A DNA stretch of 64,000 nt, taken from assembly GCF_964204645.1 (NCBI RefSeq), contig NC_134036.1:9217859-9281858 (forward strand), given 5' to 3'. The notes beneath the pieces were generated by a model. That model worked only from the letters and a program-made list of their open reading frames with translations. It was not told the DNA's origin and searched no databases. Position 1 is the first letter of the stretch, and every line of letters begins with the position of its first letter. Below, piece by piece: positions 1 through 64,000 of this stretch. The position numbers were made by a program, and so were the translations under genes. Source of the stretch: Tubulanus polymorphus (Eukaryota; Animalia; Nemertea).

Positions 1-2261
1 GAAGAATTTGAGTTTGCAGATAAATGTTATTATTGTGAAAAGATATTTAATTATAAAGATAAAAAAGTAAGAGACCATGATCATTTGAATGGAAAGTTTA
101 GAGGCGCTGCACATGAGAATTGCAATTTACAAGCCAAAAAAGTAAATTTTGTCCCCATTATATTTCACAATTTATCGGGGTATGACGCGCATTTATTCAT
201 TAAGCAACTGTGTCATAAAATAGAAGAAATCAATAATGAAATAGAAAGATTAAATTCAAATAGATTAAAAGATGACAAAGTATCAACTTATAAATTTAAA
301 ATACTAGCTAAAACATCCGAGAATTATATATCTTTCCAATTTGGGTGTTTAAGATTTATAGATTCATATAGATTTTTAAATAGTTCATTAGATAACTTAT
401 CTAAATCATTAGTTGATGATGAATTAAAGATATTAAAAGAATATTACCCAAATAATGATGATTTTAAATTAATGAGATATAAAGGAGCGATTCCATATTC
501 TTTCTATAAAAATCATAATGATTTTAAAATAACTGAATTATTGAAAGAACAATTCTATGATGAATTAAAAAATGAATATGTTAAAGATGAAGTTTATAAT
601 AGAACATTGAATATTTGGAATCATTTCAAAATAGAAAATCATGGTCAATTAGTAGATTTATATTTAAAATCAGATGTATTATTATTAACCGATATATTCG
701 AAAGGTTTAGAGATGTAAACTTAAAATATTTCAATATTGATCCTTGTCATTGTTATTCATCACCAGGATTAACATGGGATTGTGGATTAAAATTTACAGA
801 TATAAAAATGGATTTGTTAACAAATATAGATCAATTACTATTATTTGAAAAATCTATAAGAGGAGGTGTTTCAGGTGTATTGGGTGATAGATATTTCAAT
901 GTAAATGATAATCCTGGATATAAATTATTATACATAGATGCAAATAATCTTTATGGTTGGGCAATGATGGAACCACAACCTTATGGGATGTTTGAAATAA
1001 CTGAAGTTTTACAAATTGATAAATTTGATTGGAAGAAAAGAATCCTAGATATTGCAGATGATTCAGATATTGGTTACTTCTTTGTTGTAGATTTAGAATA
1101 TCCTGAAAATATTAAATTCAAATCTAGAAATCTAGCATATTGTCCCGAACATAAAACTGTTAAACATGAAGAATTATCAAATTATCAAAAAAGAATTAAA
1201 CCTGAAAATCATATTCATACTGAAAAGTTAATGGTAACTCAAGAAGATAAATATAATTACGTTGTGCATTATAGAATGTTGAAGTTTTATTTGAATCAAG
1301 GAATAATATTAAAAAAGTACATAGATATATTTCATTCAATCAATCGAAGTGGTTAGAAAAATATATAGATTTTAACACCAAACAGAGAACTGAAGCAAAA
1401 ACTGATTTTGAAAAAGATTTTTTTAAGTTAATGAACAATGCGTTCTATGGTAAGACTTGTGAAAATATTAGAAATCGAAATGATATTGAGTTAGTTAGTA
1501 ATGGTAAAAGGATAAGGCATTTACAATCATATCCTAAGTTTTTAGGTAACAGAATATTTGATGAAAATTTAGCAGCAGTTAAAATGAGAAGAACAAGTAT
1601 GAAATTCAATAAACCAATCTATGTTGGTGCATCAGTTTTAGAATTATCAAAATTACTAATGTATGAATTCTATTATAATATATTACAACCACTTTTTGGA
1701 GAAAAACACATAGAAATATTATATTTTGATACAGATTCTTACATATTAAAGATAAAAACTGATAACATAACAGATGATTTAAAAATATTAAAACACCATT
1801 TTGATTTTAGTAACTATCCTAAAGATCATGAATTGTTTAGCAATGATAATAAAAAAGTTCCTGGGAAGTTTAAGGATGAATTAGGTGGTGAAGAAATGAT
1901 AGAGTTCATTGGTATTAGATCTAAAATGTATTCATATAAAACTAAAGAACATGAAGCTAAAAAGTTAAAAGGAATAACGAAAAATGTAGTAGAAAAGAAT
2001 ATTCATTTCAAAGATTACATCAATTGTATATTCAAAGAAGAAGTTAGAAAACATAAAATGAAATGTTTAAGATCTGAAGATCATGAAATGTTTATTGAAG
2101 AAATTGAAAAGATAAGTCTAAACCCATTTGATGATAAAAGATATATTTTAGATGATGGAATCCACACAGTCGCATATGGTTGCAATTTAGATGAATATAT
2201 AAAATGCAAAAGAGAAGAAACAAAAGAAAATGAGATTATGAAAAGGATTCTAGCGTGTTAA
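1..2261 (+). CDS. polB: Protein-primed family B DNA polymerase (pPolB), C-terminal part; -1 frameshift in A-run 1311-1316 joins ORFs 85-1356 and 1431-2261
   Basis: Motifs: CxxC..VRDHDHLNGKFRGAAHENCNL (endonuclease VII-like insert), FHNLSGYDAH (ExoII), YLKSDVLLL (ExoIII), SIRGG, YIDANNLYGWAM (Pol A), KLMNNAFYGKT (Pol B), YFDTDS (Pol C); adding one A restores LKKVHRYISFNQSKWLEKYIDFNT. Confidence 0.95.
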
Positions 2262-2289
2262 TAAATTTCAATAAAAATTTGTATAATAA

Positions 2290-2631
2290 ATGGAGAGTAA
2301 ACAAGTACACAGTGAATTCTTAGATAGAATTAAAGATACCACAAATGTAAAATCTGTAGATTATAAATTCAAAAAGTTAACAGAATTAACAATTCACAAG
2401 AAATATTTAATTACAAATATTGTTACAGTTACTAACAAATATGGAGATAAATTAGTAATTCATTTAGAATATGAAGGATTAAAAGGAAATAAATATAAAT
2501 TCAGAACTTATTTACCAGATAGATTTCATAGATTATCAAGTGAAGATTTAGAAGAATTATGTTCTGGAGATTTCTATTTCGTATACAAAGGTAAGAATGA
2601 AAAAGGACACCATGAAATAGATTTCGAATAA
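2290..2631 (+). CDS. Small conserved Polinton protein (113 aa), possible OB-fold nucleic-acid-binding protein
   Basis: Intact ORF with TAAATG start; FKKLTEL..KY.I...TNKYG....YLPDRF pattern recalled from small Polinton/viral proteins; function is inference. Confidence 0.6.
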   Translation: MESKQVHSEFLDRIKDTTNVKSVDYKFKKLTELTIHKKYLITNIVTVTNKYGDKLVIHLEYEGLKGNKYKFRTYLPDRFHRLSSEDLEELCSGDFYFVYKGKNEKGHHEIDFE

Positions 2632-2648
2632 GAAAATATGTAAAATAA

Positions 2649-3407
2649 ATGGCGGAATTAAAAGAATACAGAATATTTGTAGATTCTAGAAGGCTTACAA
2701 ATTATAAATCTCATAATTTACTAGTACAATTAGATAGAGAATTTAAGAATTGTGTAGATTTAAAATTAGTAAATATAAGTTTATGTAATTCTTTTTACAA
2801 TATATCGAATAAAACTATTGAACATAATACTTTTTTAATTCATATTAGAAGTATAAATAAATGGTTTCATCTATTTCTAAGACCAGGATTATATAATTTA
2901 GAAACATTAGCTCAAGAAATTAATCGTAGAGCACGGTTGAAAATTAAAAGTGAAGATAAATTTTTAATTAAATTTAGTAAAAGTGATAGCTCAAATAGAA
3001 TTAAAATAAAAGTATTTGATGAAAGTCAACATGCATTTATGGTAAAAAAACCTATAGCTAAATTGCTAGGAATTGAACCAGATGTTGTTACAGTAAACGC
3101 AGAAGGCAGCTCAAATATAATACCTTTTACACACTTTTATATTTATTGCAATTTAATCGAGCCTACAAAAACTTTCGAAGCAACTAAAGAACCATTTTGT
3201 AATTTTAGTATACTAAATATTTTACCAATAAAAAATGTTAAACAATTTGGAACGCAAATAAATTATAATTTAACTGAATGTGATTTTAAACCTTGCATTC
3301 CTAAATTTAATAATTTTAAATTAGAAATAAGAAATCATAATGGTTATTTAATTGATTTGAATAACTTTCCTGTGATATATGAATTAGTTATAAGATGTAA
3401 AGAGTAA
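2649..3407 (+). CDS. Minor capsid (penton-like, single jelly-roll) protein
   Basis: 252 aa with FYNI, PGLY..L..IN, FYIYCNLIE, IL.ILPI, I.NHNG.LIDLN pattern typical of Polinton mCP. Confidence 0.8.
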   Translation: MAELKEYRIFVDSRRLTNYKSHNLLVQLDREFKNCVDLKLVNISLCNSFYNISNKTIEHNTFLIHIRSINKWFHLFLRPGLYNLETLAQEINRRARLKIKSEDKFLIKFSKSDSSNRIKIKVFDESQHAFMVKKPIAKLLGIEPDVVTVNAEGSSNIIPFTHFYIYCNLIEPTKTFEATKEPFCNFSILNILPIKNVKQFGTQINYNLTECDFKPCIPKFNNFKLEIRNHNGYLIDLNNFPVIYELVIRCKE

Positions 3408-3423
3408 TTTTTTTATTATATAA

Positions 3424-3783
3424 ATGAATATAACTGTTGGACCGAGTATATGTTTTGGGTTTGATTTTAAACGTGAGAAAGAAATGAAATTTAACATTAA
3501 TGATGTAATAACACATATCAAAAATGTTGTATTTTCTAATGAAACAACATTTGAGTATGAAACAACAATTGATAAAGAAACTTTAAATGTAGAAAAGATT
3601 ACTAATTTAATTAGAGAATCTTTAAGATTTTATGAATTAGATGAAGATTTTATCATCGATGATATTTAAAAAATAATAATTGAAATATATGATAATCATA
3701 AAACTAGTAATGAAATAAATGTTGAATTAATCATAAATAAGTTAACTAAATATTTTGATGATAGTAATTTTTTTGATAAATAA
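3424..3783 (+). pseudogene. Hypothetical protein with probable premature stop at 3667-3669
   Basis: Frame stays open after TAA (KIIIEIYDNHKTSNEINVELIINKLTKYFDDSNFFDK) to TAA 3781-3783, which abuts the next ATG. Confidence 0.5.
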
Positions 3784-4006
3784 ATGAGTGATAATAAGTG
3801 GATAATAACTGGATTATATAATGGCGCATTATTATCAGTTGGAACTGTTGGTTATTCAATGGTATTAAAAAAAAGTATTCAAAATGGGAAGTGTTAATGT
3901 TGATAGATTTGATATAAATGATATTTTAAAATTAACATTAGCAGTTACTTTATCTAATTTAACTATTGATTACTTGGAAAAACAAAAATATATTCCTCCC
4001 ATATAA
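3784..4006 (+). pseudogene. Small hydrophobic conserved Polinton protein, +1 frameshift in A8 run 3867-3874 (not in ORF track)
   Basis: MSDNKWIITGLYNGALLSVGTVGYSMVLKK/VFKMGSVNVDRFDINDILKLTLAVTLSNLTIDYLEKQKYIPP; TAAATG start. Confidence 0.65.
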
Positions 4007-4031
4007 ATGTATAATTTTTGTTGCTAAATAA

Positions 4032-4454
4032 ATGGCTTCTGCAATTATAACTATTATAGGATCAGCAATTGTTAACGCTTTAGCATTTACTGGTGGTGGA
4101 TATTTATTTAAACATATTGATAAAAATGGATCATTAACAGAACAAAAAAGACATAATTTAGCGTTAGAGAAATATAATAAAGATGCAGAAGAATATAGAG
4201 AAAAGAGACAAAACTATATGGATTATATTAACAAAGAATTATATGATCAGAAGATTTCACACAGAGATTTTCAATCAGTTGATGATGCAATGAGTTTATA
4301 TAACGCAGTAACCAATAAAGAAAAATTACATCTATACAAACCTAAATTATCAGATTATTATACCCCAAGTAAAGAACAACAGAAATATGAAATAATATGG
4401 ATTTTAGGTGGAACTGTTATTGTTATATTTGTTGCTTATAAGTTTACTAATTAG
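4032..4454 (+). CDS. Conserved Polinton protein with N-terminal Gly/Ala hydrophobic helix and C-terminal TM
   Basis: MASAIITIIGSAIVNALAFTGGGYLF..E.KRHNLALEKY pattern recalled from invertebrate Polintons; C-terminal IIWILGGTVIVIFVAY. Confidence 0.75.
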   Translation: MASAIITIIGSAIVNALAFTGGGYLFKHIDKNGSLTEQKRHNLALEKYNKDAEEYREKRQNYMDYINKELYDQKISHRDFQSVDDAMSLYNAVTNKEKLHLYKPKLSDYYTPSKEQQKYEIIWILGGTVIVIFVAYKFTN

Positions 4455-4473
4455 TAATTTTTATTCTAAATAA

Positions 4474-4884
4474 ATGGAAGATAAAGTTGATAGTATTGAT
4501 ATTATTCCTCATGATATAAATAAAACTAAATTAAAAACATATTTAGAAAAACAAATATTAGAATTTGAAAGTGACTTAAAGATAAAAAAGAAAAAATATT
4601 TAAAAAGTAAAATTATATATTATTTGATTATAAGTGGTTCGGTTACAATTAGTTCTGTAATAACATTTCTAGCAATATTTAGTCCATTAACACCTTTAGC
4701 TATATCAATTGGTGTATTAGGATTAAGTTCAAGTGTTTTAACTGGTATAAGTTCAAAATTAAATATAAAAAGTAATAAAGAAAAAATTAAAACTAATATA
4801 AAAGAAATTAATAAATTGAAGAACACACTAGATTATATAATAAGTTTAAATGGTCATATAACAGTTGAAGAACAAGATAAATGA
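4474..4884 (+). CDS. Two-TM membrane protein (SLATT-like topology)
   Basis: Basic stretch followed by two hydrophobic helices and a short coiled coil; possible premature TGA with frame open to 4908. Confidence 0.65.
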   Translation: MEDKVDSIDIIPHDINKTKLKTYLEKQILEFESDLKIKKKKYLKSKIIYYLIISGSVTISSVITFLAIFSPLTPLAISIGVLGLSSSVLTGISSKLNIKSNKEKIKTNIKEINKLKNTLDYIISLNGHITVEEQDK

Positions 4885-4924
4885 TTAAAAGAATTAATAA
4901 ATTATTAATTTTTTAGTTATATAA

Positions 4925-6226
4925 ATGGGGTTTCCAAAAGCTTTCCAATATAATAAATCAATTAAATATAATATTCCGGCAATAGATTTTAAGAAAAATA
5001 TTACATATAAAAATATAGTTTTAAATTCATTAACTAATTTAGAAATTTATGTTAATGAATCACAGTTTTTTATTTCTAAAATGGAAAATATATTTAATAC
5101 ATATGAAGTTACTTTTACTCGAGATGAATATCATATATATAAAGTAAAATCTAATATGAAGTATTGGCAGAATCAATTAAATTTTGCTGTTTATTGTGCA
5201 ACAACAGGATGTGGAATAAGTTGGAATGATCATTTAAATAACTTAGATAAAAATTTGAAGTATTCTGATTTAAAATTAATTCACACAATATTTAGATTTC
5301 ACACATATTTTCAAATCAGAATAATATTAAATGAATTAGAATGTCCTTTACCCGGGTCTAAATATTTTAAAGAATTGGATAATAATATTAATATATCCAA
5401 GTTTTATAAAATATGTAATGAATTTAATATAAATATTAATTCCGATTTTAGAGCGCATGGTAAATTACAAGGTGTTGGTGAAGAGTTTGAAATAAAAAGA
5501 ATTGATTATATGCATAGAATTTCAGCTTGTCATAATTATAAAATTGATAATAATAATGGTTGGGTTAATTTCATTTTAGAAAATGGTGAAGGTTTTACAA
5601 AATCAGGTATACAAAGAATAAATCAATCTATTAGAATTTATTTGATATGTATTTTAGGTGCGCAAGTTGAAACAAGATCCCCAATAATTGGAAATGATAA
5701 CACTTCATTCGATGCGCAGAAACAGTTTAAAGTTTTATTTGAAGATTCCATACATGATGATAAAAATAGATCGATTCCAGAAAACATTATAAGATATCAA
5801 AATTATTTAGATAAATCTCATGTAAGACTAAATTATTGTATAGGCCCTAATCTATTAATTATTTCTAATGATTTAGTATTGAAGATGGGAAATATAATTG
5901 GTTATAATAATCTAATTAAAACTGCAACAATAAATAATTCATTTGGGTTAAATGATATAAATAAAAAGATTATTACTGCTCCAAAATTAATGGAAGGTGA
6001 AAAAAATAAAAAACACATTCAATCAACAGAAACTAAAACTAAGAATATTAAATTGGTTAATGATTCCAAAATAAAAGATTACAATACATCAGAAAATAAT
6101 AGAACTGATATTATTCAACATGATATAATTAAAACTAATGATGATAATAAATCCCATGAAAATACTAAATTAGCTATAACTTGTATAGGAATTGTAATCG
6201 GAGGAATATTATATTTTAAATTTTAA
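4925..6226 (+). CDS. Conserved hypothetical Polinton protein (433 aa) with C-terminal TM anchor
   Basis: Intact long ORF; WQNQLNFAVYCATTGCGIS and FRFHTYFQIR..L.EL..PLP motifs; C-terminal hydrophobic tail. Confidence 0.75.
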   Translation: MGFPKAFQYNKSIKYNIPAIDFKKNITYKNIVLNSLTNLEIYVNESQFFISKMENIFNTYEVTFTRDEYHIYKVKSNMKYWQNQLNFAVYCATTGCGISWNDHLNNLDKNLKYSDLKLIHTIFRFHTYFQIRIILNELECPLPGSKYFKELDNNINISKFYKICNEFNININSDFRAHGKLQGVGEEFEIKRIDYMHRISACHNYKIDNNNGWVNFILENGEGFTKSGIQRINQSIRIYLICILGAQVETRSPIIGNDNTSFDAQKQFKVLFEDSIHDDKNRSIPENIIRYQNYLDKSHVRLNYCIGPNLLIISNDLVLKMGNIIGYNNLIKTATINNSFGLNDINKKIITAPKLMEGEKNKKHIQSTETKTKNIKLVNDSKIKDYNTSENNRTDIIQHDIIKTNDDNKSHENTKLAITCIGIVIGGILYFKF

Positions 6227-6241
6227 TTTTTTATTATGTAA

Positions 6242-7933
6242 ATGGATGTAGAAGGTGGAGAAGATTATGAAATGGGAGAAATGGGAAATGATAATGAAGG
6301 ATATATTGATGATGATTATAATGATGCAGAAACTAATATTGATAATAATGATGAATCAGCATATAATACTAATTTAGGTGAAGAAGATGATTATGATGAT
6401 GATTATGATGATGATCCCGAATTACGTGAAAAATTAAATAAATATTTAGAAGCTCCTGAAAGGGGTAGAATTTCAACTAGAAGAGAAAGAAAAGAATTTA
6501 TGAAACTATTAGTAGAACAACAAGAAAAATATCCTGATAAACCTATGGAATTATATAGAATGAAATCTAGAGTAACAGATACAATTGTTAACGAATTATT
6601 ACCAAAAGTTGTAATAGATGAAATTGATACTGAAGATGTTGTAGAACAAATTTTTAAAGATGACCCATATTTCACAAATAATTTAGAATTTAAAAATGAT
6701 TCATGGTATTATAATGTTAATTTAAATAACAAAATTGTATCAATTCAATTATCTAAAATGGGTCAAGAAAATATTTATGAACCTGGAATGCGAGCATTAT
6801 CTACAATTGAAAGTTCAAAAGGTGGTAGAGAATTTCTCAGAATTATATGGAATGCACTCGATAGAGTAAATGAAGAAGAACCAATTCCTAATATTGATAT
6901 AAACAAATATTCACCATTTAAAAATCCAAATCCTACTGATTTTGATCCAGAAATGGAAGAGAATAGAAATCAATTAGATAAATTAAGATCTTCAACACCC
7001 GAAACATCGAGAAGAGACACTCAACAAATTGATAATGATTCAAGTCAATTACAATTAACATTAGAAAAACAAATTAATAGATTAAGTGATTCAGAAGAAG
7101 AAATGAATAGTACTGGAATAAATCAACTGCAATATTTACTAGAAAAAGGATTATTTGATTTAACTGATGATGAATTAGAAGCATTTCCTGAACAAGCACG
7201 TAGAGAAATTAAAGGTATGCAAGAATCAGCTGATAAAATTGCGCATGATAAAAGTATAAGAGATTTTAAAATTAGAACTTTAGAAAAAGAATTAACTGAT
7301 AAAAATAAAGAAATAGAACGATTAAAGTCTGATTTAGATCATCAAGTAATTGATGAAATAGAATATAGGCAAAAAGAATTACGTTTAGAAAAAGAAATAG
7401 ATGATTTAAAATATAACAAAGAATTACAGGAAAAAGAAAGAGATACATTATTAAAATTATATGATAATAATATTAATAGATTAAAAGTTATTTTTAAAGA
7501 TTTGTTGATTAAACCAGATTCTGAAATATCATTAAAAGACAGAATAAAGTTATTATTTAAATTAGAAGGTATAACAATTCTTTCAATTCTAACAGCTGTA
7601 ACTATGTTATTTACAACAATTGGTTTAGCTATATCAAATGCTTTAAAATCTACTCCTACTCCAAATAAACCGGATAAACCTCCAGGTAATAATTCTATAC
7701 AAGATAAAGTTAAAGATGGTTTAAAGAAATTAGCAAAATATTTATGGGAACTATCAAAGAAATCTGCTGCAGCATTGCCAGGAGTTATTGCTTCAATTGT
7801 TGGTTTTGTTTTAAAATCTGCAGGAAACATTATTAACTTTGCTGCTGAACATATTATTTTATTTTTAATTACAGTTGTAAGTGCTATTATTTTTGGGTTA
7901 GTAAATATGATATCAAAAAATATCAAAAAATAA
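6242..7933 (+). CDS. Acidic/coiled-coil protein with C-terminal hydrophobic helical bundle (candidate membrane-penetration protein)
   Basis: 563 aa; acidic N-terminus, coiled coil, then EGITILSILTAVTMLFTTIGLAI and AALPGVIASIVGFVL...IILFLITVVSAII; function inferred. Confidence 0.7.
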   Translation: MDVEGGEDYEMGEMGNDNEGYIDDDYNDAETNIDNNDESAYNTNLGEEDDYDDDYDDDPELREKLNKYLEAPERGRISTRRERKEFMKLLVEQQEKYPDKPMELYRMKSRVTDTIVNELLPKVVIDEIDTEDVVEQIFKDDPYFTNNLEFKNDSWYYNVNLNNKIVSIQLSKMGQENIYEPGMRALSTIESSKGGREFLRIIWNALDRVNEEEPIPNIDINKYSPFKNPNPTDFDPEMEENRNQLDKLRSSTPETSRRDTQQIDNDSSQLQLTLEKQINRLSDSEEEMNSTGINQLQYLLEKGLFDLTDDELEAFPEQARREIKGMQESADKIAHDKSIRDFKIRTLEKELTDKNKEIERLKSDLDHQVIDEIEYRQKELRLEKEIDDLKYNKELQEKERDTLLKLYDNNINRLKVIFKDLLIKPDSEISLKDRIKLLFKLEGITILSILTAVTMLFTTIGLAISNALKSTPTPNKPDKPPGNNSIQDKVKDGLKKLAKYLWELSKKSAAALPGVIASIVGFVLKSAGNIINFAAEHIILFLITVVSAIIFGLVNMISKNIKK

Positions 7934-7957
7934 ATAATTAATTTTTTTGTTAAATAA

Positions 7958-8710
7958 ATGAGTGGGAGTTATATAAGTCCTTCTAAGATTTCTAGAATAT
8001 CTAATGCTATTAAAGCAGAAAGATCACATCATATAATTACTCATAACGCTTCAAATATTAATCCCGATGAAACTTTATACGTTAGAATCCCTCGATTAAC
8101 ACAAAATACTTTTTATGTTCCAAATAGTATTTATTTATCAGCCGATATAAAAGTAATCGGTAATAATAATAATTATGTCGTTGATAATGTTGGAAGATAT
8201 TTGATTAAAAAGTTAACAATAAAGATTGGTCCAGAAACAGTTTTCTCATTAGATGATTATAATTTATTTATGCATTATAAAGATTTATGGTTAACTAAAG
8301 AAAATAGAAATAATATGATATTTCAAGGCATCCAATCAGAAAACCAAAATAAATTAAGATCAGAAGCTAATAGCGCAATATTAACAAATGATGTAGATAA
8401 ATTGATAAAAAGTATATATGGAAGCAAATATAAAATTCCATTAGACTTTGAATTGATAAATAATAATGCACCTTTAATGCATCAAATTGATTATTATACC
8501 GGTAATAAATATGCATTATGGTTAGATTTTAGAACAACTGAAGATAATTCATTACATGGTTCTGGAAAAAAACTACAAAATACAAAAGATGGAATACAAT
8601 TATTCATGACAAAGAAAAAAGGAATCAAAAATTTTAAAATGCACATTTATATTATATCTGACGCGCAATTAAATATTGTAAATTCTCAATTAAATAGTGT
8701 TATGTATTAA
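7958..8710 (+). CDS. Major capsid protein (double jelly-roll), apparently with an in-frame internal deletion near 8470
   Basis: N-terminal THNASNINPDETLYVRIPRL..VPNS..VDNVGR..YKDLW..IPLDFEL joined directly to C-terminal KYALWLDFRTTEDNSLHGSG..YIISDAQLNI; only 250 aa. Confidence 0.8.
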   Translation: MSGSYISPSKISRISNAIKAERSHHIITHNASNINPDETLYVRIPRLTQNTFYVPNSIYLSADIKVIGNNNNYVVDNVGRYLIKKLTIKIGPETVFSLDDYNLFMHYKDLWLTKENRNNMIFQGIQSENQNKLRSEANSAILTNDVDKLIKSIYGSKYKIPLDFELINNNAPLMHQIDYYTGNKYALWLDFRTTEDNSLHGSGKKLQNTKDGIQLFMTKKKGIKNFKMHIYIISDAQLNIVNSQLNSVMY

Positions 8711-8742
8711 AATTTTAACTTTAATAAAAATGTATATAATAA

Positions 8743-9906
8743 ATGGAAGGTGGAATATATGAAATACAATCTCCAAGTGAAATGATATCAGATATATATT
8801 ATATATTACCTTATGATGAATACAGTAAGTATTTTGGAGATTACTTTAATCAATTCAAATATAGAATAAGTAAAATAGATAAGAATATTGAAACAAAAAT
8901 AGAAGATAATATTGAAACTAAAATAGAAGATAAGAATGATATTGAATATAAAATAGAAGATAATATTGAATCTAAAATAGAAGATAGTAATAATATTGAA
9001 ACTAAAATAGAAGATGTAACAGCATCTACATCTTATAATATACCATCTACATATGATATTGAATCAAAAAAAGATTATAATCAAAAATATTGTGATGTAT
9101 GTAAGAAATATATATCATATAAAAATTGGGCATCACATAAGAAATCAAAGAAACATATAGAAAAAGAAAAGAATAATAATGATAATAATATATCAGTTAG
9201 TAATATAAAAGATAATGTTAACCCAATTAAAACTAATGATACCATAGATAATATAACAGATAATGTAATAAATAATATTAACCCAATTGAAACTAATGAT
9301 AATGATATAACAGATAATGAAATAATTGATGATTCTAAAAAACATTGTAACATTTGTAATTTAGATATTTCTAAAAGTAATTTTTCTAAACATAAAAAAT
9401 CTAAGTGGCACATAGAAAATGAAAAAGAATTAATATGTGATTATTGTAATAAAGAAATTGAACCTGTTGATAAAATTACTCATTATAAATCAAAATTACA
9501 TCTAATTAATGTTTATAAAAAAGTGGGTATGTTACCATTGTTAAATAACCCTTTAGAATATATAAAATATTTTGATTATAATATTAACCAATATGATATA
9601 TTCTATAATTTGTTATTACATAAATTTTTAGATTATGCAAACGATAATCTTGAACAAATGTATAAATTTTTATATTTGAGAAGAAAAGATTCAACTTATT
9701 TGATAATTAATTTTGGATATGATATTGATTTTTATTATTATGATTTTGATGAAAACTTTGAAAAAATAAAAGAAAAAATTAATATGCCTACTGATTATAG
9801 ATTAATGATGGATCGGCTAAACTCAATAAATATACCAAAGACTTATGGAGAATTTGATATAAACGAAGATGATTTTATAAATGTATTAGAAACAAAATTA
9901 GAATAA
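8743..9906 (+). CDS. Protein with three C2H2 (matrin/U1-like) zinc fingers and IETKIEDN repeats
   Basis: CDVC..HKKSKKH, CNIC..HKKSKWH, CDYC..HYKSKLH; ~5 IExKIED repeats at ~8885-9015. Confidence 0.75.
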   Translation: MEGGIYEIQSPSEMISDIYYILPYDEYSKYFGDYFNQFKYRISKIDKNIETKIEDNIETKIEDKNDIEYKIEDNIESKIEDSNNIETKIEDVTASTSYNIPSTYDIESKKDYNQKYCDVCKKYISYKNWASHKKSKKHIEKEKNNNDNNISVSNIKDNVNPIKTNDTIDNITDNVINNINPIETNDNDITDNEIIDDSKKHCNICNLDISKSNFSKHKKSKWHIENEKELICDYCNKEIEPVDKITHYKSKLHLINVYKKVGMLPLLNNPLEYIKYFDYNINQYDIFYNLLLHKFLDYANDNLEQMYKFLYLRRKDSTYLIINFGYDIDFYYYDFDENFEKIKEKINMPTDYRLMMDRLNSINIPKTYGEFDINEDDFINVLETKLE

Positions 9907-9910
9907 TTAT

Positions 9911-10308
9911 TATAAAACTATTTATATATCTATAAAACTATTTATATATCTATGTACTAGACGTATGAGTAAGAAAGTAAGAATCCAAGAATCCTTACCA
10001 AGAAATATAAATTATAAACATAGATTATAAACATAAATTATAAATATAAATTATAAATATAAATTATAAACATAAATTATAAATATAAATTATAAACATA
10101 AATTATAAATATAAATTATAAACATAAATTATAAACATAGTTTTAATATATGATTTATTCATTATTATATATTTCATTTAATAATTCATATTTCTATGGA
10201 CTAGACGTACGTAAGAATCCAAGATTCTTGCCAAGAAAGTAAAAAGGTAAGAATCTTACTTTCTTACTCATACGTCTAGTAGATAGATATATAAATTAGT
10301 TTCTATAA
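9911..10308. repeat. Intergenic repeat module: 28-bp perfect inverted repeat flanking 10 x 13-bp tandem array
   Basis: TACTAGACGTATGAGTAAGAAAGTAAGA 9955-9982 and its reverse complement 10254-10281; (ATAAATTATAAAY)10 at 10007-10136; 20-bp direct duplication 9911-9950. Confidence 0.9.
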
Positions 10309-10326
10309 TGATCCAAATTATAAATT

Positions 10327-10938
10327 TTATTTTATAAATTTATATTCATAAGGAAATTGTAATCTCATTAATAATTTTGAACCTTTATTATTTTTTAATT
10401 TATTCATATATTCATCATGTAATTCAGTAGGTATAATTTGATTTTCTTCCAATGATTGTTGCATAGATTTTCTATCTTTGTTATAAAATAAAACTAGAAA
10501 TCTTATATTCTCTCTAAAGTCTTTAACAATTGAATTATATTTTTGATTTAAAACCCAAGTTGTTATCCCAAAATGTCTACCAGAGAAAGCTAAATAACAT
10601 AACTCACTTTCTCTAATTTTAGAATCATGTAAATTTGCACAATCATCAATAATAAATAATGTATTTGATCCTTTATAAATATCTAATGCAATTTTTATAC
10701 AATTATCTAAATTTTCTTTTACTGTTTTGGGGTCTAATATAATAAACTTTTTTATCTTAACTATATCTCTATTATATGTTTTATTCATTTCATATGTAGG
10801 ACAGAATAATATTATATTATCAAAATGATTTTTATAAATAGTTTCTAACAAATCTAATATGAAATGTGTTTTACCACAATTTGTAACTCCAGTAACTAAC
10901 ATATTATGTGGTTCAAATATAAATAAATCTTTATTCAT
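10327..10938 (-). CDS. FtsK/A32-like genome packaging ATPase
   Basis: Walker A GVTNCGKT, Walker B LFIIDD, SGRH arginine motif, LNQKY..I.K..REN. Confidence 0.92.
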   Translation of the reverse strand: MNKDLFIFEPHNMLVTGVTNCGKTHFILDLLETIYKNHFDNIILFCPTYEMNKTYNRDIVKIKKFIILDPKTVKENLDNCIKIALDIYKGSNTLFIIDDCANLHDSKIRESELCYLAFSGRHFGITTWVLNQKYNSIVKDFRENIRFLVLFYNKDRKSMQQSLEENQIIPTELHDEYMNKLKNNKGSKLLMRLQFPYEYKFIK

Positions 10939-12046
10939 TTATTCTTTTAATTTTACTAGATAAAATCCATTCATTAAATTTATCATCATATCCTTTATAT
11001 TTCACCAAAGAATACTTTTTTCCTTTAAGAGTTTTAGTTTTTAATACCTTTTCTATTTTGTATTCTATTTCATCTGGATTTGGTACAAGTGATAATTCTT
11101 GTTCATAGAAATAACCTAATATTTCTTCATCTTTTAAATCTTCTAATTTATAAACAAATGGTTTAGTTAATATTATCTTTTTAATTTTAAATATTTCTTC
11201 TGTAAAATTAGGGGTATAACCTTTATAAAATGTTTTTCTATATTTAGATATTCTTACGTGTTGTCCTATTTTAAATTTAGGTTCTCCAAAATCATGTGTA
11301 ACAAATGCTCCATATAAATTATTCCAAACTATTTCTGAATTTTCTTCTTTTCTAGCTTGTATAGGTTTCATATTTATAGAACTATGTTTAGAATTATTAT
11401 AACCTTTAACTAAATCATCTAACACATCGATATATTTATATGTTTCATTAGCGGTGAAATATTTCCACATTCTAGTTTTCAATGTTTTATTAAATCTTTC
11501 TATAACAGATGCTTTTTTATCTGAATGTGTTGAAAAATATTCTACATCGTTATCAGATAATAGTTTTTTGAAATGTTTGTTATAAAATTCCTTACCTTCA
11601 TCAAATTGTATCTTATCTGGGATAGCTTCTTTAAATATAGATTTAAAAGCATTTGTAACTTCTAATCCAGTTTTATTTTTAATCGGGATACTCCATGCGT
11701 ATCTACTGAATATATCTATAACATTCAGTATCCAGAAATATCCTTTGTTGTATTCTTCTAAGTTTTTCATGTCAATTAAATCAGCTTGCCATTGTTGGTC
11801 AATATATGAAACCATAACTTTTCTTGTTAAATATTTTTTATCCATCTTTTTATGAATTTGATATGTGGGTTGATTTTGTAACCATGATTTTAATTCACTA
11901 TATTTTATATCACTGTGTGGGTGCCGTACGGCACCATTGCTATTATCGGATTTAATTTTATTCCATAATTCTGAAACGTTAGAATATGATACTTCACTTT
12001 CTGGGTTATAATATAACTCTCTTAAATATTGTTCTTTTTTCATCAT
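10931..12046 (-). CDS. int: Retroviral-like DDE integrase with C-terminal chromodomain (c-integrase)
   Basis: QWQADLIDM, IDIFSRYAW, QFDEGKEF, KASVIERFNKTLK, YNNSKHSSI, chromodomain YKIEKVLK..LVKYKGYDDKFNEW. Confidence 0.96.
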   Translation of the reverse strand: MMKKEQYLRELYYNPESEVSYSNVSELWNKIKSDNSNGAVRHPHSDIKYSELKSWLQNQPTYQIHKKMDKKYLTRKVMVSYIDQQWQADLIDMKNLEEYNKGYFWILNVIDIFSRYAWSIPIKNKTGLEVTNAFKSIFKEAIPDKIQFDEGKEFYNKHFKKLLSDNDVEYFSTHSDKKASVIERFNKTLKTRMWKYFTANETYKYIDVLDDLVKGYNNSKHSSINMKPIQARKEENSEIVWNNLYGAFVTHDFGEPKFKIGQHVRISKYRKTFYKGYTPNFTEEIFKIKKIILTKPFVYKLEDLKDEEILGYFYEQELSLVPNPDEIEYKIEKVLKTKTLKGKKYSLVKYKGYDDKFNEWILSSKIKRINE

Positions 12047-12049
12047 ATT

Positions 12050-12427
12050 TTAATCCATTAATAATATTTTAGATTTATTTTCATTTGATTTATTTTCTGT
12101 TATAATAGGTTTACTGTTTGTACACGGATAACTAAGTTTCCGATCATCATTGGAATCATCTTTATCGTCAGATTTGAATTTTGATTTATATATTACACCG
12201 GATAATATAATAACTGTGATTAACCCAATTGTAATATATAATTTATAATTACTTCCAACATTAGAAGAATCAGATGGATTATTATTTGAATCAATACCAG
12301 GTGATTCATTTATATCAGTTAATTTCTTTTTCTTAGCTTTTTTTAATTCTGAAGATCTTTTACCTAATTCTCTTGCCCATTTAATTTGTTTCTCGGATCT
12401 AGCCTTTTTCTTAACTCCATCACTCAT
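12050..12427 (-). CDS. Hypothetical single-TM basic protein
   Basis: 125 aa, basic N-terminus, TM LYITIGLITVIILSGVIY; TAAATG start overlapping upstream stop. Confidence 0.6.
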   Translation of the reverse strand: MSDGVKKKARSEKQIKWARELGKRSSELKKAKKKKLTDINESPGIDSNNNPSDSSNVGSNYKLYITIGLITVIILSGVIYKSKFKSDDKDDSNDDRKLSYPCTNSKPIITENKSNENKSKILLMD

Positions 12428-13022
12428 TTATTTTAGTTAATTTTTGTTCTGATTCATCTTCTGTTTCGTGGTTTGGTTGTAGTACATCTGTTTCGTTCTT
12501 ACCTGATTTATATTCCATAGGTTTGATGTTCGAAAATGTTATAACTCCAGTAGAAATCAATGTCATAACCGATCCTAATTGAAATGAAGCATATCCAACC
12601 CATTTTTGTAATTCAGTCATAACTAAATAGTCATTTTTCAAATCATTATATAATTTATTTTCATCATCAATTGGTATTAGCCGGTTACATAATTTTGAAT
12701 AACATTTGATAATACCATCACTTATAGAGTCGTTTATTCTAGCTAATCTTGACTCTTCATAAATCTTAAAATATTTGATTACTTTTTCTTTATTCATATT
12801 ATCTAATTCTTGAAAAGTTATTATTTTTCCTAAGAAGTCCTTAGATTTCCCACCAGCAATTAATAATTCAAGATGATGCTTACAATATAAATAGTATTCA
12901 TAATCTATATTGTTATTAACTTGAGCACAATTAGTTGCAACTGTATCTTTATTATCACTTATACCCAAATCATCTAATGTTTTTTCAACCTTAATATTAT
13001 TCTTATTCGATTTCTTAGACAT
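12420..13022 (-). CDS. Conserved hypothetical Polinton protein (200 aa)
   Basis: Intact ORF, TAAATG start, GKSKDFLGK and L..DL.ND pattern, hydrophobic C-terminal helix. Confidence 0.65.
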   Translation of the reverse strand: MSKKSNKNNIKVEKTLDDLGISDNKDTVATNCAQVNNNIDYEYYLYCKHHLELLIAGGKSKDFLGKIITFQELDNMNKEKVIKYFKIYEESRLARINDSISDGIIKCYSKLCNRLIPIDDENKLYNDLKNDYLVMTELQKWVGYASFQLGSVMTLISTGVITFSNIKPMEYKSGKNETDVLQPNHETEDESEQKLTKINE

Positions 13023-13245
13023 TTATATTAGAGAAATTTAATAAGAATAGTATTATAAGTATTCTTCAAATGATACTAGCTAGTTAAAGCTAAAGAATTC
13101 TAGTATTAGTTATTGTTTTTTAGTATTTTTTATTTGTGATATAAAGTATTCTTTTTTGAAAGAAAATATTAAAAATTAAAATAGAAATAATAGCTAGTTG
13201 AAGGTATGTAATTTTTATTATATTTTATTTGAGATATATTATTCT

Positions 13246-13961
13246 TTAACCACTCATTAAAGACTCAACATATTGTTCATTATTTGGATTATTGTTCCAT
13301 AATTCAATAAATTTCTTTGCTTTATCCAGTTGATCTAAATATAATTTCATATCTAGTTTGTTAGATTTAATTATATTTTCTTTCTTTTCTAAAGGTCTTA
13401 GATTCTTCCAATTCCAGATCAGCTTCTTATAATATTCATCATTCATATCAAATTCAGAAATCGGCAACACGTGATCAATATGAAAGTATTCACCATAATT
13501 ATCTATATTCATTTTATCATCGAATTGATATATTATCCATGATTTGAGAAATTCATCTGAACAACCTAATAGATCAGATAATGTGTATGAGTGACTGTCT
13601 TTGCTGAATAATTGTGTTAATCTAGACCGTAAACATTGTTTCAATCTAAAATTAAGATCTGTTTGATATCTTTCTCTCATATATTTTGTCATATAATCAT
13701 TATAAGATTCTCTATTATCTTCTCGATATTGTTTGGTATATAGTTTAAAACAAGTTTTACAGCAATTTTGAAAACCATCTTTGCTAATCTTACGCTTACT
13801 AAATTCTGTTATAGCTAATTTATCTAATTCACATTTAGAACACTTTTTGTAGTATATGTTTATAACGCCAGTGTTATTTGTAATATTGGTAGTTTGTGGT
13901 TGTTCTCTTCCCTCTGGAAGAATCCTCTTCCATTTCTCCGACTAACGTCATCCTTTTTCAT
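13246..13961 (-). CDS. HNH-like endonuclease with N-terminal Cys4 zinc ribbon; probable frameshift near 5' end
   Basis: FHIDHVLPI..F..WKNLRPL..ENI.KSNK HNH-type motif; frame open upstream of 13692 through KKCSKC..F..DG..CKTC to ~13941; candidate ATG at 13961 is in another frame. Confidence 0.7.
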
Positions 13962-15076: not shown

Positions 15077-15250
15077 TTATAACGATTCAACATATTTTTC
15101 ACCATGTGTTGAGTTCCTTAATTCGATAAATGTCTTTGCTTTAACCAACTGGACTAAAAACAAATGTGTTATAGTTTTATTGTGTCTTGCTTTTTGAGAC
15201 TTGTCTATATCGATATTACATGTTGGACAGTAGTATTTATTTGCTTCCAT
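15077..15250 (-). CDS. 57-aa mini-ORF: pPolB N-terminal zinc finger carried in the TIR fused to unrelated tail
   Basis: MEANKYYCPTCNIDIDKSQKARHNKTITHL|FLVQLVKAKTFIELRNSTHGEKYVESL*; expression unknown. Confidence 0.4.
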   Translation of the reverse strand: MEANKYYCPTCNIDIDKSQKARHNKTITHLFLVQLVKAKTFIELRNSTHGEKYVESL

Positions 15251-15599
15251 TTTAATACTATATTTTTTATTAAAATTGATTTTAGAAGTTCAATGATTTA
15301 AATGTTATTCATATATATATGAATAACATTTAAGAGTAATAGGGATATAGGCTTTCAGGTCAAAGGTTGAACGGGTGGGTGAGTAAAAATGAAAAACATA
15401 AAAATAATTACAATTTCTACTTGAATTAGGAGTGAAACTCATAAAAATGAAAAATAAATTCGAGCGTGTGAGAATTTATTTTTCATTTTTATGAGTTTCA
15501 CTCCTAATTCAAGTAGAAATTGTAATTATTTTTATGTTTTTCATTTTTACGAGCTCGACCGTTCGACCTTTGGCCTGAAAGCCTATTATCCCTATTACT
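15162..15599 (-). repeat. Right terminal inverted repeat of Polinton copy 1 (~440 bp, defined by homology to copy 2 left end)
   Basis: Reverse complement matches 61784-~62139, including pPolB start ATGGAAGCAAATAAATACTAC; similarity stops after ...ATAACACATTT. Confidence 0.85.
15335..15599. repeat. 265-bp terminal fold-back palindrome (hairpin)
   Basis: Arm 15335-15461 (AGTAATAGGG...) pairs with 15472-15599 (...CCCTATTACT); 10-nt loop. Confidence 0.95.
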
Positions 15600-60406: not shown

Positions 60407-61783
60407 CAGTGCTGCCAACCTTATCATTTTCAAATTCAGGACGCCTTTAACTTTTTTTCATATTTTCAGTGGTTCAAGGAGTAACATTAAAATATCACTT
60501 TTACGTGATCAAATAGAATTAAGAACAAGTAAAACTTAAGTAGGAAAACTTTTTTATTCCGCAATAACAATCAGTTTTGATGGAATATGCTGTATGCGCA
60601 ACATTTTTTAATGAAAAACTTACTTAATTTTTTAATGAAAATACAACTATAAACTGCCAACAACTATCTACTTCAGTCGAGTCCTCTGAATGTATTGCAT
60701 CTTATTGCAGACTAACCCTATCAAATACTGTTAGTGTTTATATTCTAAAAGAAAATAAAGCTATTTATGCCAACACATATTTCCTTCAAATGAGATCTTT
60801 GTTTATTGCATCTATTGCTGGTTAACCCTTTTAAATACTGTTTATATTCTAAGAGAAAATAAAACTATGAACTGCCAACAACTATCTACTTCAGTTGAGA
60901 TCTTTGTTTATTGCATCTTATTGCAGACTAAATCTATCAAATACTGTTTATATTCTTAAACCTCTTCTTCACTACTGTACATGCAGACGGACGGATGAAC
61001 AGTGAACACAAGTGGGCTAACAAAACATATGAGAAAATTAAGTTGAAAGAGCGTGATGAGTAGCAGAATTTGCTTTTCTCAATAGTCCCATTGATGGCTC
61101 GAACTGGTGACAACATCCTGGTTGCGATTTCATAACCATTAACGATTCCAAGGTTCTTTCACCAAGTGAAGCGCGAAAGTCCGTTTTATTCCTTTTCACA
61201 AAACTAAATATTCTTTCACATGGAGAGTTGCTCACAGGTATAAGAAGGACGCTACACATGGTCCTAGGGAGAACTTTAAATCTGTAAATCAATAATAAGG
61301 TCACGGAAATTAGCATACTTATTTAATTCAAAATATAGCATCATGATTTTATCCTCAATAAATCAATCAGCCTGAAAGCATAAAATTAATGGTAATGTAT
61401 GGATTCTTAAACTTATTAAACAGATAAACTATCATGAAATTATCATTACTTCATGTCCCAGTTTCTCTTAATAAAATCAAAATTATTTCTTACCTTACAT
61501 TTCCATTGGTATCCTTCATTTGAGATATAAGCCTCCACTGGTCTTCAGCACTTCTATCCTCAGGGGGCTCACTCTGCTTCTTAAACAAATCCTTCGGCAA
61601 TATATCTTCCAAAACTGTTTGAAATTCAAGGAATTCCATTTCTAGGTTATCTCTTGTTGGCAAATCACCGAGAATCACTGGAAATCGATCGAGAAAGTAT
61701 ACCAGCGAGCCATATTGTGCCTTTGACCTCAACTTAATATCTGCCACCTAAAATTCAAAGGGTTAAAAATTGGCTAAAATTGC
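60407..61783 (-). mobile_element. 3' part of a hAT-family DNA transposon (transposase C-terminal exons ~61038-61281 and ~61494-61747)
   Basis: hATC dimerisation motif LLIPVSNSPCERIFSFVK..KT..R.SL...L; upstream exon with W..I; candidate terminus CAGTGCTGCCAACC at 60407. Confidence 0.8.
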
Positions 61784-61970
61784 AGTAATAGGGATAATAG
61801 GCTTTCATACCAAAGGTCGAAGGGTCGAGCTCGTAAAAAAATGAAAATAATAATTTACAGTTGAATTAGTCGCGCACACTCCTAATTCAACTGTAAATTA
61901 TTATTATTTTCATTTTTTTACTCACTCGCCCCTTCAACCTTTGATACGAAAGCCTATTATCCCTATTACT
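61784..61970. repeat. 187-bp terminal fold-back palindrome (hairpin)
   Basis: Arm 61784-61869 pairs with 61882-61970; 12-nt loop. Confidence 0.95.
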
Positions 61971-62050
61971 CTTAAAATATTCACATAAATGAATAACATT
62001 TAAATCATTGAACTTCTAAAATCAATTTTAATAAAAAATATAGTATTAAA

Positions 62051-64000
62051 ATGGAAGCAAATAAATACTACTGCCCAACATGTAAGATAAGTATAGATAA
62101 ATCCCAAAAAGCAAGACACAATAAAACTATAACACATTTAGAGAATAAATTGAAACTAGAATATAAAGATGATATATTAGAAACTAAATTAGAAGAATTA
62201 AAGAATGAAAAAGAAACATATAAATGTGATACATGTAATCAATCATTCAGTGATAAAAGATATTATAAAGAACATTTAAAATCTATAAGTCATATTAGAA
62301 ATAAGAATAATGATATTTTAGGTGAAGATTATTTTGATAATGATAACGATAAGAAACAGAAGACAATTAAAAGAATAAAAAATAAATTAAACAATAAAAG
62401 ACCATACATGGAAGATGTAAGAAATTATATTAATTCATTAGATAATAAAAAAGATATAGAGATAACCGAAGCATTTAAAAGTGATATTGGTCCAGCAGCT
62501 ATCGAGTTTAAATTTCATAAAGGTAAAACATTAGAAGAAAATAAAAAACATTTAGAAAATATGAAAGAAATAATAAAAATAATTACAGGTGTTGAATATC
62601 CTAAAATTAGTATATCAGTTAAAGTAAAGTTTATAAAATCTGAAGATAAACCAATATATAATATAAATTCTCATTCACAACATATTATATCTAAACAACA
62701 TATAGATGATAAATTAGAAAAATGTTATAATGAAATAAAAACTAAAATAGAAGAAAAATATTTTGAAGGATCTGGTTTAATATTTGATGAGATAATATTT
62801 ATAACTTTACATGTTTATAACACAAAATATAATAAGTTAACTAAATCAAAACCAATTGATGAAAATAATTTATCATATTATAAAGATGATAGTATAAATG
62901 GAACAAGTTATATTAAACTACCATTTAAAACTAATGCTGTAATAAATGTACAAAATGAAGATGATAAATGTTTTCTATGGGCTATAATAAGTTGTTTACA
63001 TCCAACAGAAGATATTACACATAGTTTTAGATTAACTCATTATAAACCATTTGAAAATAATTATAAGATAGATAAGTATCCTGTTAGAATTAAAAACATC
63101 CCCAAAATAGAAAGAGATAATAATCTTAAAATAAATGTATTTGATTTAATTAAATTACCAAATACAAAAGGAAATAATATTAAACATTATACATTAGAAC
63201 CTTTATACCTATCAAAAGATTATGATTCAAACGATGTTATAGATATATTATATTATGAGAATCATTATATGTGGATTAAACAAATAGATTTATTTTTTAG
63301 AACAGAAAGTGATCACCATAATAAAATATATCTATGTAGAAAATGTTTACATAGATTTAGTAATGAAAGTACATTATTAAATCATAAACAACTATGTGAT
63401 AATCATGATTATTGTAAATTAGTTTTACCAAATGAAAAGGATAAAATATTAGAATTCAAAAAATATGATTACAAAAATAAAGTACCATTTGTAATATATG
63501 GAGATTTTGAATCATTAAATAAAGAATTAACAGATAAAGATAGAAAAGATATATAATATAAAAGAAAGAAATTAAATTCTAATGAAAGTGATTATTCAGA
63601 AGACCCACCAAAAACAAATACAATTAAAAAGATTCATCAATCAGCTGCAGCTTTCGGGTTATATATTAAATCTAATTATCCAGAACTAATCGAAAGTGAA
63701 TATTATAATTATAGAAATGAAAATGTTATCAATCATTTTTGTGACTTATTAATTGAATATGAAATAAGATTTAATGAAAAGTTAAATAAAAATATAGAAA
63801 TTATAATGACAGAAGAAGATAAAGAAGAATTTGAGTTTGCAGATAAATGTTATTATTGTGAAAAGATATTTAATTATAAAGATAAAAAAGTAAGAGACCA
63901 TAATCATTTGAATGGAAAGTTTAGAGGCGCTGCACATGAGAATTGTAACTTACAAGCTAAGAAAATTAACTTTGTACCAGTTATATTTCATAATCTATCA
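62051..64000 (+). pseudogene. polB: pPolB N-terminal region (zinc fingers, OTU-like protease domain, ExoI) with in-frame nonsense codon at 63554-63556
   Basis: C2H2 fingers; GTSYIKLP..INVQNEDDKCFLWAI...NHYMWIK (vOTU-like Cys/His); VIYGDFES ExoI; same frame continues after TAA through RDHNHLNGKFRGAAH to FHNLS. Confidence 0.9.

Follow-up and report, generated by a model that had tools for sequence, protein, structure and literature searches.

Tubulanus polymorphus Polintons end in a long, conserved imperfect palindrome, likely under selection for folding of the 3'-terminal strand

Results

Gene content identifies the element as a Polinton

The window, the whole 64,000-nucleotide stretch of Tubulanus polymorphus DNA analyzed here, contains the right end of one element (element 1) and the left end of another (element 2), which starts at position 61784 and extends beyond the window end. 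On its + strand, element 1 carries pPolB (1..2261, split into two frames), comprising an exonuclease region with an endonuclease VII insertion and a polymerase, a 113-aa protein kept beside pPolB in relatives (2290..2631; nearest named Atlas cluster phi29-type SSB at 0.85, a lead only), and a short (250 aa) probable major capsid protein (7958..8710; PF16903, E 0.0023, below the curated cut-off). On the − strand lie an A32-type packaging ATPase (10327..10938; PF04665, E 1.3e-11), an rve integrase with a chromodomain (10931..12046; PF00665, E 6.2e-10), and a stand-alone endonuclease VII/HNH-like protein (13246..13692; phrog_1035, E 5e-4; no PDB sequence match), which is a candidate nickase/resolvase. 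Element 2 contributes the N-terminal part of its pPolB (62051..63556, + strand), with zinc fingers, TP domain, and vOTU, the frame being broken downstream. The match to protein-primed family B polymerases is clear (PF03175, E 1.5e-11), and the gene is broken in both window copies. The TIRs have 5'-AG...CT-3' termini, and the terminus is confirmed by reads. By the features tested (pPolB, rve integrase, A32 ATPase, and TIRs), the element is a Polinton, of the endonuclease-bearing pPolB kind that we take to be 'group 2'/beta. Among the scanned ORFs, none was assigned to an HUH/Rep nickase family, and none matches an Ulp1/adenain-like maturation protease in Pfam (window 1-13700).

Several other features were noted in the window. 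A 433-aa ORF (4925-6226) has no Pfam, PHROG, or usable Atlas match, and the ORF at 2290-2631, for which three homologues were found, lies upstream of pPolB in two related loci (L023 and L026). A pair of 55-bp inverted repeats, 89% complementary and 265 nt apart, is located between the convergent gene blocks (9931-10305), and host repeat units of about 60-95 bp are scattered in both orientations over 16578-36742.

The right TIR of element 1 spans about 440 bp (15162..15599), as delimited by its match to the left end of element 2 and by read divergence. Its inner part (15162-15250) holds about the first 29 pPolB codons, reversed. Since the TIR includes the pPolB start, each end probably has an inward-facing pPolB promoter copy.

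The terminus is a 265-bp imperfect palindrome

The outermost part of the TIR is an imperfect palindrome of 265 bp (15335..15599), supported by alignment, folding, and reads, of which the + strand is the 3'-terminal strand. The palindrome proposed in the initial annotation is therefore real. It consists of an inner arm (15335..15461) with T or a purine at the conserved asymmetric positions, a 10-nt apical loop (15462..15471) that has variants in reads, and an outer arm (15472..15599) ending in ...ACT-3'. Both arms start with the 12-mer AGTAATAGGG, which occurs four times in the window, each time at the start of a hairpin arm, where 0.45 occurrences are expected. Aligning the arms reproduced exactly the imperfections previously described on the + strand, i.e. 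five wobble pairs (T15360.G15573, T15368.G15565, T15376.G15557, G15378.T15555, and T15380.G15553), three G.A mismatches (G15375.A15558 and the tandem G15381.A15552 and A15382.G15551), and a single bulged T near 15587. The inner stem comprises 79 bp without mismatch. In the predicted fold, the terminal 3'-OH pairs at 15335, as the initial annotation had it, and forms a recessed 3' end in primer position.

Two further elements of the fold were noted. The apical loop could stack on this strand only, through tandem G.A, wobble, and G-C pairs, judging from the sequence; such stacking is likewise possible on the 3'-terminal strand only in the loop of the second window copy (about 61871-61882), and it is retained in loop variants among reads. 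In addition, a perfect 36-bp palindrome (15298..15333) lies one base interior to the large hairpin and has a weaker counterpart in copy 2 (about 61972-62004). If folded, these small palindromes would be placed directly ahead of the paired 3' end.

The palindrome recurs at a second end and in raw reads

The left end of element 2 (TIR 61784..62139) is similar to the right end of element 1 over about 440 bp, including the first pPolB codons, and also bears a terminal hairpin (61784..61970, 187 nt), in which the − strand is the 3'-terminal strand, with four G.T, three G.A, and one 3-nt bulge. The two copies display the same hairpin architecture in the same orientation and have six mismatches in common (three T.G and three G.A), all within an asymmetry zone that in copy 1 extends over 15360..15382 and pairs with 15551-15573. 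The tandem G.A pairs sit in a pyrimidine-GA-purine context (T-GA-G / C-GA-G), a context that gives sheared pairs in hairpins of DNA (PMC10085684). Three stem positions are altered on both arms between the copies. The arms are 127 nt long in copy 1 vs about 87 nt in copy 2, and pairing of the inner stem is kept despite changes in its length and sequence.

We then turned to about 12% of the raw Illumina run X5, which comes from a different study under the same species label, mapped to both ends. Of 10982 reads placed on copy 1, 1689 depart at 15599 into dissimilar flanks (agreement 0.35), and 938 diverge at 15162, the inner TIR border. For copy 2, 7787 reads were placed (6961 of them only partly aligned), of which 2384 run into flanking sequence at 61783/61784 (agreement 0.34). 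Contigs from Logan runs X1-X3, which are mutually non-independent, are consistent with X5. Because similarity between the copies ends at 15599 and 1689 reads exit there into unlike flanks, we conclude that this position is the terminus. The read flanks place the hairpin at many insertions, and it is therefore no artefact: together with the second end in the window, raw short reads from the other study rule out an assembly fold-back.

The reads also show which imperfections are characteristic of the family. Six of the nine are common to copy 2, but T15376 and the bulge are minority states, with 439/469 reads having C at 15376 and the bulge near 15587 lacking (an A present) in 358/613. The tandem G.A, although found in both window copies, is absent from part of the family, since a cluster of 533 clipped reads points to a subfamily whose inner arm lacks it; we thus regard it as optional. 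This subfamily appears to carry additional wobble-type differences, judging from its majority line and variant shares. Other single mismatches also vary among subfamilies (61810 C>T in 19% and 61929 C>A in 20%). Among paired positions with a listed variant, excluding loop and extra-hairpin rows, 10 of 19 have complementary substitutions in the two arms, in broadly similar shares of the reads, which are shares and not linked haplotypes; for example, 61794 A>G (1172/2927) accompanies 61960 T>C (1102/2192). In the two copies and in reads, therefore, wobble mismatches stay put while stem pairs co-vary.

The symmetric changes in stem length and sequence, and the perfect 79-bp inner stem of copy 1, would be expected if the fold simply shielded the displaced 3' end and allowed a nibbled end to be refilled, replication itself proceeding by ordinary protein priming. 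Refilling would, however, erase the differences located 25-50 nt from the end, yet those persist, and we consider this explanation improbable.

The 3'-terminal strand folds more stably in most ends

Folded as ssDNA, the + strand of copy 1 reaches -123.4 kcal/mol and the − strand -115.7 kcal/mol (z -30.8 vs -29.3 against shuffles). The + strand preference put forward in the initial annotation thus amounts to 7.7 kcal/mol, but the − strand also folds strongly: its long stem still forms, with bubbles only 25-50 nt from the end. Since both strands fold strongly, the preference is real yet local to this region. In copy 2, the corresponding values are -77.9 (3'-terminal, minus) vs -67.7 kcal/mol, and among related ends described below they are -42.2 vs -33.3 kcal/mol in L046, -30.5 vs -23.4 kcal/mol in L036, and -69.5 vs -69.4 kcal/mol in L026, a tie without overall strand bias. 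The 3'-terminal strand is consequently the more stable in four of five ends, by 7.7, 10.2, 8.9, and 7.1 kcal/mol. For comparison, the gap between strands is 0.5-3.8 kcal/mol for five further palindromes of the window. With eight random mismatches, 5 of 200 null trials reach an energy gap at least as large as that of copy 1, which on its own is therefore modest evidence of strand bias.

Terminal hairpins recur in relatives, with a pooled wobble bias

Among 74 related pPolB loci, a hairpin of the terminal type was found in five (L023, L026, L035, L036, and L046), a count that is no prevalence figure because the terminus is not locatable in most of the remaining loci. In all five, the hairpin lies just upstream of pPolB or of a small neighbour gene. 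The L026 hairpin is 257 nt long, next to a pPolB about 70% identical to that of copy 2 (alignment A2), and the L046 hairpin is 129 nt long, with an AGTAGT end and about 37% pPolB identity; those of L023, L035, and L036 are partial, cut at the contig start. For copies 1 and 2, L026, and L046, the end of the palindrome and the terminus coincide exactly.

Mismatch types were tallied in well-aligned columns of five ends, without L035, which is nearly the same as L036, and without L023, which is partial. On the 3'-terminal strand, G.T/T.G pairs outnumber A.C 13 to 1, and G.A/A.G outnumber T.C 11 to 2. When two sites common to the window copies are counted once, the ratio of wobble to A.C pairs is 11 vs 1 (p=0.006, for sites that are not fully independent). 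The G-T/G-A bias and the covariation for which the initial annotation proposed tests were both found. Nine of the 11 wobbles have T on the inner arm and G on the outer arm, and the motif pair GG(T)CGA/GGTTGA recurs in L023 and L026. The skew towards T(inner).G(outer) suggests that the sequence needed for function lies on the outer arm, the inner arm being free to change only at positions where this strand stays paired.

Separate observations were made in other loci. The central stem of L026 has a C-GAA-G triloop on the 3'-terminal strand. In L010, a 184-nt hairpin with a branched centre (4657-4840) lies between the integrase block and pPolB; being internal and without strand bias, it was rejected as terminal and left out of the counts, as were L037 and L051, whose termini are not established. 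L001 and L021 have TIRs at their contig ends and no hairpin there, ends that may be truncated. No terminal hairpin was found in 22 pPolB loci on viral contigs (27-39% identity). A pattern scan of viral contigs for the exact terminus gave no match; with a degenerate motif there were five matches, none with a terminal hairpin, and further pattern scans gave none. Many contigs in the L033-L079 range carry a Polinton-type pPolB and are binned in bacterial/archaeal MAGs, most likely as eukaryotic or viral contamination.

A bias of this kind could also be a by-product, arising if the fold were transient and repair overlooked the well-stacked G.T and G.A pairs, so that the spectrum would reflect repair or mutation. 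That single mismatches come and go in subfamilies, as at 61810 and 61929, and that L026 is unbiased overall are in keeping with it. The same asymmetric positions are nevertheless kept across copies, the GG(T)CGA/GGTTGA pair recurs, and terminal hairpins are retained at about 37% pPolB identity, so that we hold this explanation to be very improbable. The bias might alternatively stem from an RNA hairpin, in a transcript running outward through the TIR (for example as a small-RNA source). The same mismatch spectrum is generally expected in RNA, and a promoter is probably nearby, since pPolB starts about 80 nt inside the hairpin. In four ends, though, pairing of the stem extends precisely to the final base of the DNA, which fits a role of the DNA end, and an RNA origin seems to us very unlikely. 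Because stem pairs co-vary, wobbles are fixed, distant relatives have hairpins, and the bias is 11:1, selection for the fold of the 3'-terminal strand is likely.

Orientation of the end in integrated copies

Nick-and-copy resolution of a terminal hairpin, or a closed telomere, would leave the palindrome inverted in about half of the ends. For copy 2, inversion would have to show as C>T at positions 61818 and 61830 together with A>G at positions 61924, 61936, and 61944. C>T occurs at seven places in the copy 2 reads, every one of them listed and none at 61818 or 61830; A>G occurs at six, five of which are listed elsewhere, so that at most one of the three diagnostic sites reaches 8%. In short reads of integrated copies, we thus looked for a flip/flop isomer at 8% of reads or more at the diagnostic sites and found none, shares that could be biased by the placement rule for reads fitting both arms. 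The 61810 and 61929 positions do show the opposite-arm letter at about 20%, a pattern that points to subfamilies having lost single mismatches and not to inversion.

Read joints were in line with this. Those that contain the loop are in a single orientation among the joints listed, and those that skip it (copy 1) occur with both loop readings but match the symmetric stem only and are orientation-blind. Among the 15 joints listed, none connects the terminus to the inner border on opposite strands, and none joins the outer arm to inverted internal sequence as a replication intermediate would. No cluster of loose ends at the inner border is present among the six listed, the smallest of which has 461 reads.

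Because opposite-arm letters are below 8% at the key sites, simple nick-and-copy resolution is excluded, and any reopening step therefore needs an extra assumption. Accordingly, neither covalent closure of the ends nor hairpin resolution of the classical kind, as entertained in the initial annotation, finds support, inverted ends accounting for less than 8% of reads at diagnostic sites. An AAV-type rolling hairpin with terminal resolution is not supported, flip/flop isomers being below 8%, nor are poxvirus-type covalently closed telomeres, as two inverted loop isomers were not seen in integrated copies (diagnostic sites <8%). Taken together, folding of the 3'-terminal strand at some stage of the element's life cycle is very probable, and so is a single, constant orientation of the end.

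A fixed orientation in integrated copies would also follow if the fold served integrase attachment. The folded strand would offer a TP-free, recessed ...CT-3'OH resembling a processed retroviral end, and subsequent copying of the unfolded palindrome by host repair would give the same orientation every time. The way in which TP comes off ahead of integration has been described as unclear (PMC11161782), which leaves room for such a role. In a duplex genome, however, the fold would have to beat perfect pairing, and we judge this quite improbable.

Predicted protein-priming domains are conserved in pPolB

The natural N-terminal frame of copy 2 was modelled from 52 sequences (mean pLDDT 76.6). Residues 130-261 of the model match LF/PAD (little-finger/PAD) domains (Z 8.3, rmsd 2.7, 104 aligned), and residues 271-411 match viral OTU proteases (Z 7.9, rmsd 3.6, 104 aligned). 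These are intermediate Z scores; the two folds had, however, been predicted beforehand and occupy the top of the list. The best Foldseek matches are all Y-family polymerases (top E 5.5e-3). A TP plus vOTU arrangement has been described at the pPolB N terminus, with the linking residue in the loop before the last strand (PMC11161782), and the candidate priming residue Ser241, followed by Gly, is located in precisely this loop of the model. Ser241 is present in 50 of 52 sequences (the following Gly in 49), and the vOTU residues Cys307 and His405 in 51/52; the endonuclease VII motif is found in 49/51 full-length homologues. These predicted protein-priming domains (TP, priming Ser, and vOTU dyad) are thus conserved in pPolB, so that replacement of protein priming by hairpin priming is not supported. 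With TP domain, Ser, and vOTU intact and a normal 175-bp inner TIR, the classical panhandle route would still be available.

Conservation of these residues and folds bears on another possibility, in which the folded 3' end rebuilds a duplex origin locally, as a panhandle in cis, for TP-pPolB. The outer arm would serve as template and the inner arm be displaced, making self-priming and resolution unnecessary. Such an origin would yield the fixed orientation directly (flop <8%), and T(inner).G(outer) wobbles are what one would expect from a sequence constraint on the outer arm together with a need for pairing alone on the inner. There is a precedent in Streptomyces telomeres, which TP-prime on a folded 3' overhang with sheared G.A (PMC4513846). 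On the other hand, phi29 origins with a 5' overhang are markedly less active and one with a 5' hairpin is essentially inactive for TP priming (PMC4150772), the paired 3'-OH would have to be kept from extension, and the symmetric changes in arm length are not explained by this model on its own. We consider it unlikely, though worth keeping in mind.

Discussion

We find that the palindrome at the end of this Polinton is a real, conserved end structure, probably under selection, and that a hairpin-telomere or AAV-type system is not supported; the mechanism proposed below is hypothetical. Of the hairpin-priming idea in the initial annotation, a family-wide, co-varying palindrome whose mismatches favor the 3'-terminal strand in several lineages is upheld, whereas resolution and closed ends are not. 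We tentatively favor a model in which the first strand is protein-primed, the displaced strand is primed by snap-back of its own 3' end, and the hairpin is reopened without inversion. By analogy, phi29 points in this direction, since it uses a recessed 3' end as a good primer and disfavors TP origins with a 5' tail or hairpin (PMC4150772).

In this model, TP-primed strand displacement from one end, which is established for pPolB replicons and for which the domains are found here, would free a single strand. Its 3' end would then zip back, as selection on the fold suggests, so that the last base pairs with 15335 and leaves a recessed 3'-OH ahead of the small second hairpin. Extension of this 3'-OH by pPolB would make the displaced strand duplex without pairing ends about 17 kb apart, and the same copying would hold both arms in step. 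The closed end would finally have to be reopened at the outer-arm boundary and not at the inner one, which is the weakest step; candidates for this cut are pPolB's own endonuclease VII-type domain, the stand-alone nuclease, and the integrase. Conserved differences between inner and outer arms would distinguish them and so produce one end orientation. In the MVM left end, a small arm asymmetry (a bubble) leaves only one arm active as origin, and a single orientation has been reported for the left end of LuIII (PMC1185569).

More broadly, Polintons of the endonuclease VII type might use TP for the first strand and strand-specific snap-back for the second, their own nuclease reopening one side, a generalization that we regard as doubtful. 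If true, such a two-primer cycle would yield orientation-fixed, protein-free ends for the integrase, give the nuclease insertion a function, and explain TP clearance before integration. Models of Polinton replication have so far relied mostly on gene content, and what becomes of the displaced strand in protein-primed replicons continues to be debated (PMC11886824), as does TP removal ahead of integration (PMC11161782). The end structure provides a defined substrate of 130-270 nt, suited to oligonucleotide assays of priming by the end itself or by TP, of cutting by nucleases, and of use by the integrase.

Our literature search covered little of Repbase and of the subscription papers, and within it one preprint was directly relevant to Polinton ends. 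Palindromes at TIR tips are described there in endogenous virophages of Halocafeteria seosinensis and PLV subtype 4, with hairpin priming proposed (bioRxiv 10.64898/2026.07.28.741278). Hairpin priming at palindromic ends was thus already proposed in July 2026 for virophages/PLVs, but the specifics reported here for Polinton ends were not found. What is alike is a palindrome at the very TIR tip of an rve-integrase element. The Halocafeteria palindromes are 52 nt long (subtype 5) and occur preferentially with non-pPolB replication genes (bioRxiv 10.64898/2026.07.28.741278), whereas those described here measure 129-265 nt, come with a full TP-vOTU-pPolB, and every end found adjoins the pPolB gene. 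Terminal palindromes therefore extend beyond elements lacking pPolB. The parts of the preprint consulted contain no strand bias, covariation, or orientation test (bioRxiv 10.64898/2026.07.28.741278). Endonuclease-bearing pPolB Polintons/Mavericks (pPolB2, PMC10748475) have in common with our element the pPolB, rve integrase, A32 ATPase, AG...CT TIRs, and TP plus vOTU (PMC11161782). In word searches, 'palindrom' and 'hairpin' are absent from PMC10748475 and 'hairpin' from PMC8502044, and in PMC11161782 the match is a reference title only; these word searches thus gave no account of hairpins at DNA ends. We found no earlier description of the strand bias, the fixed orientation, or the coexistence with protein priming; Repbase and subscription papers may differ.

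Imperfect terminal hairpins are also known from AAV ITRs and poxvirus telomeres, where they exist as flip and flop isomers. The imperfect hairpin is common to these systems and ours, but the flop form here is below 8% of reads. The MVM and LuIII left ends are closer in having a 3' hairpin, a small arm asymmetry, and a single orientation; they belong to ssDNA viruses without TP priming and require the HUH protein NS1 (PMC1185569), and no HUH protein was found here. Streptomyces telomeres resemble our element in combining a terminal protein with a folded 3' single strand that contains sheared G.A, and fold-back extension from the 3' end has been seen in vitro (PMC4513846). They differ in having several short palindromes, an overhang left by internal replication, and the Tap/Tpg proteins (PMC4513846), whereas the ends described here each carry one long hairpin on a pPolB element.
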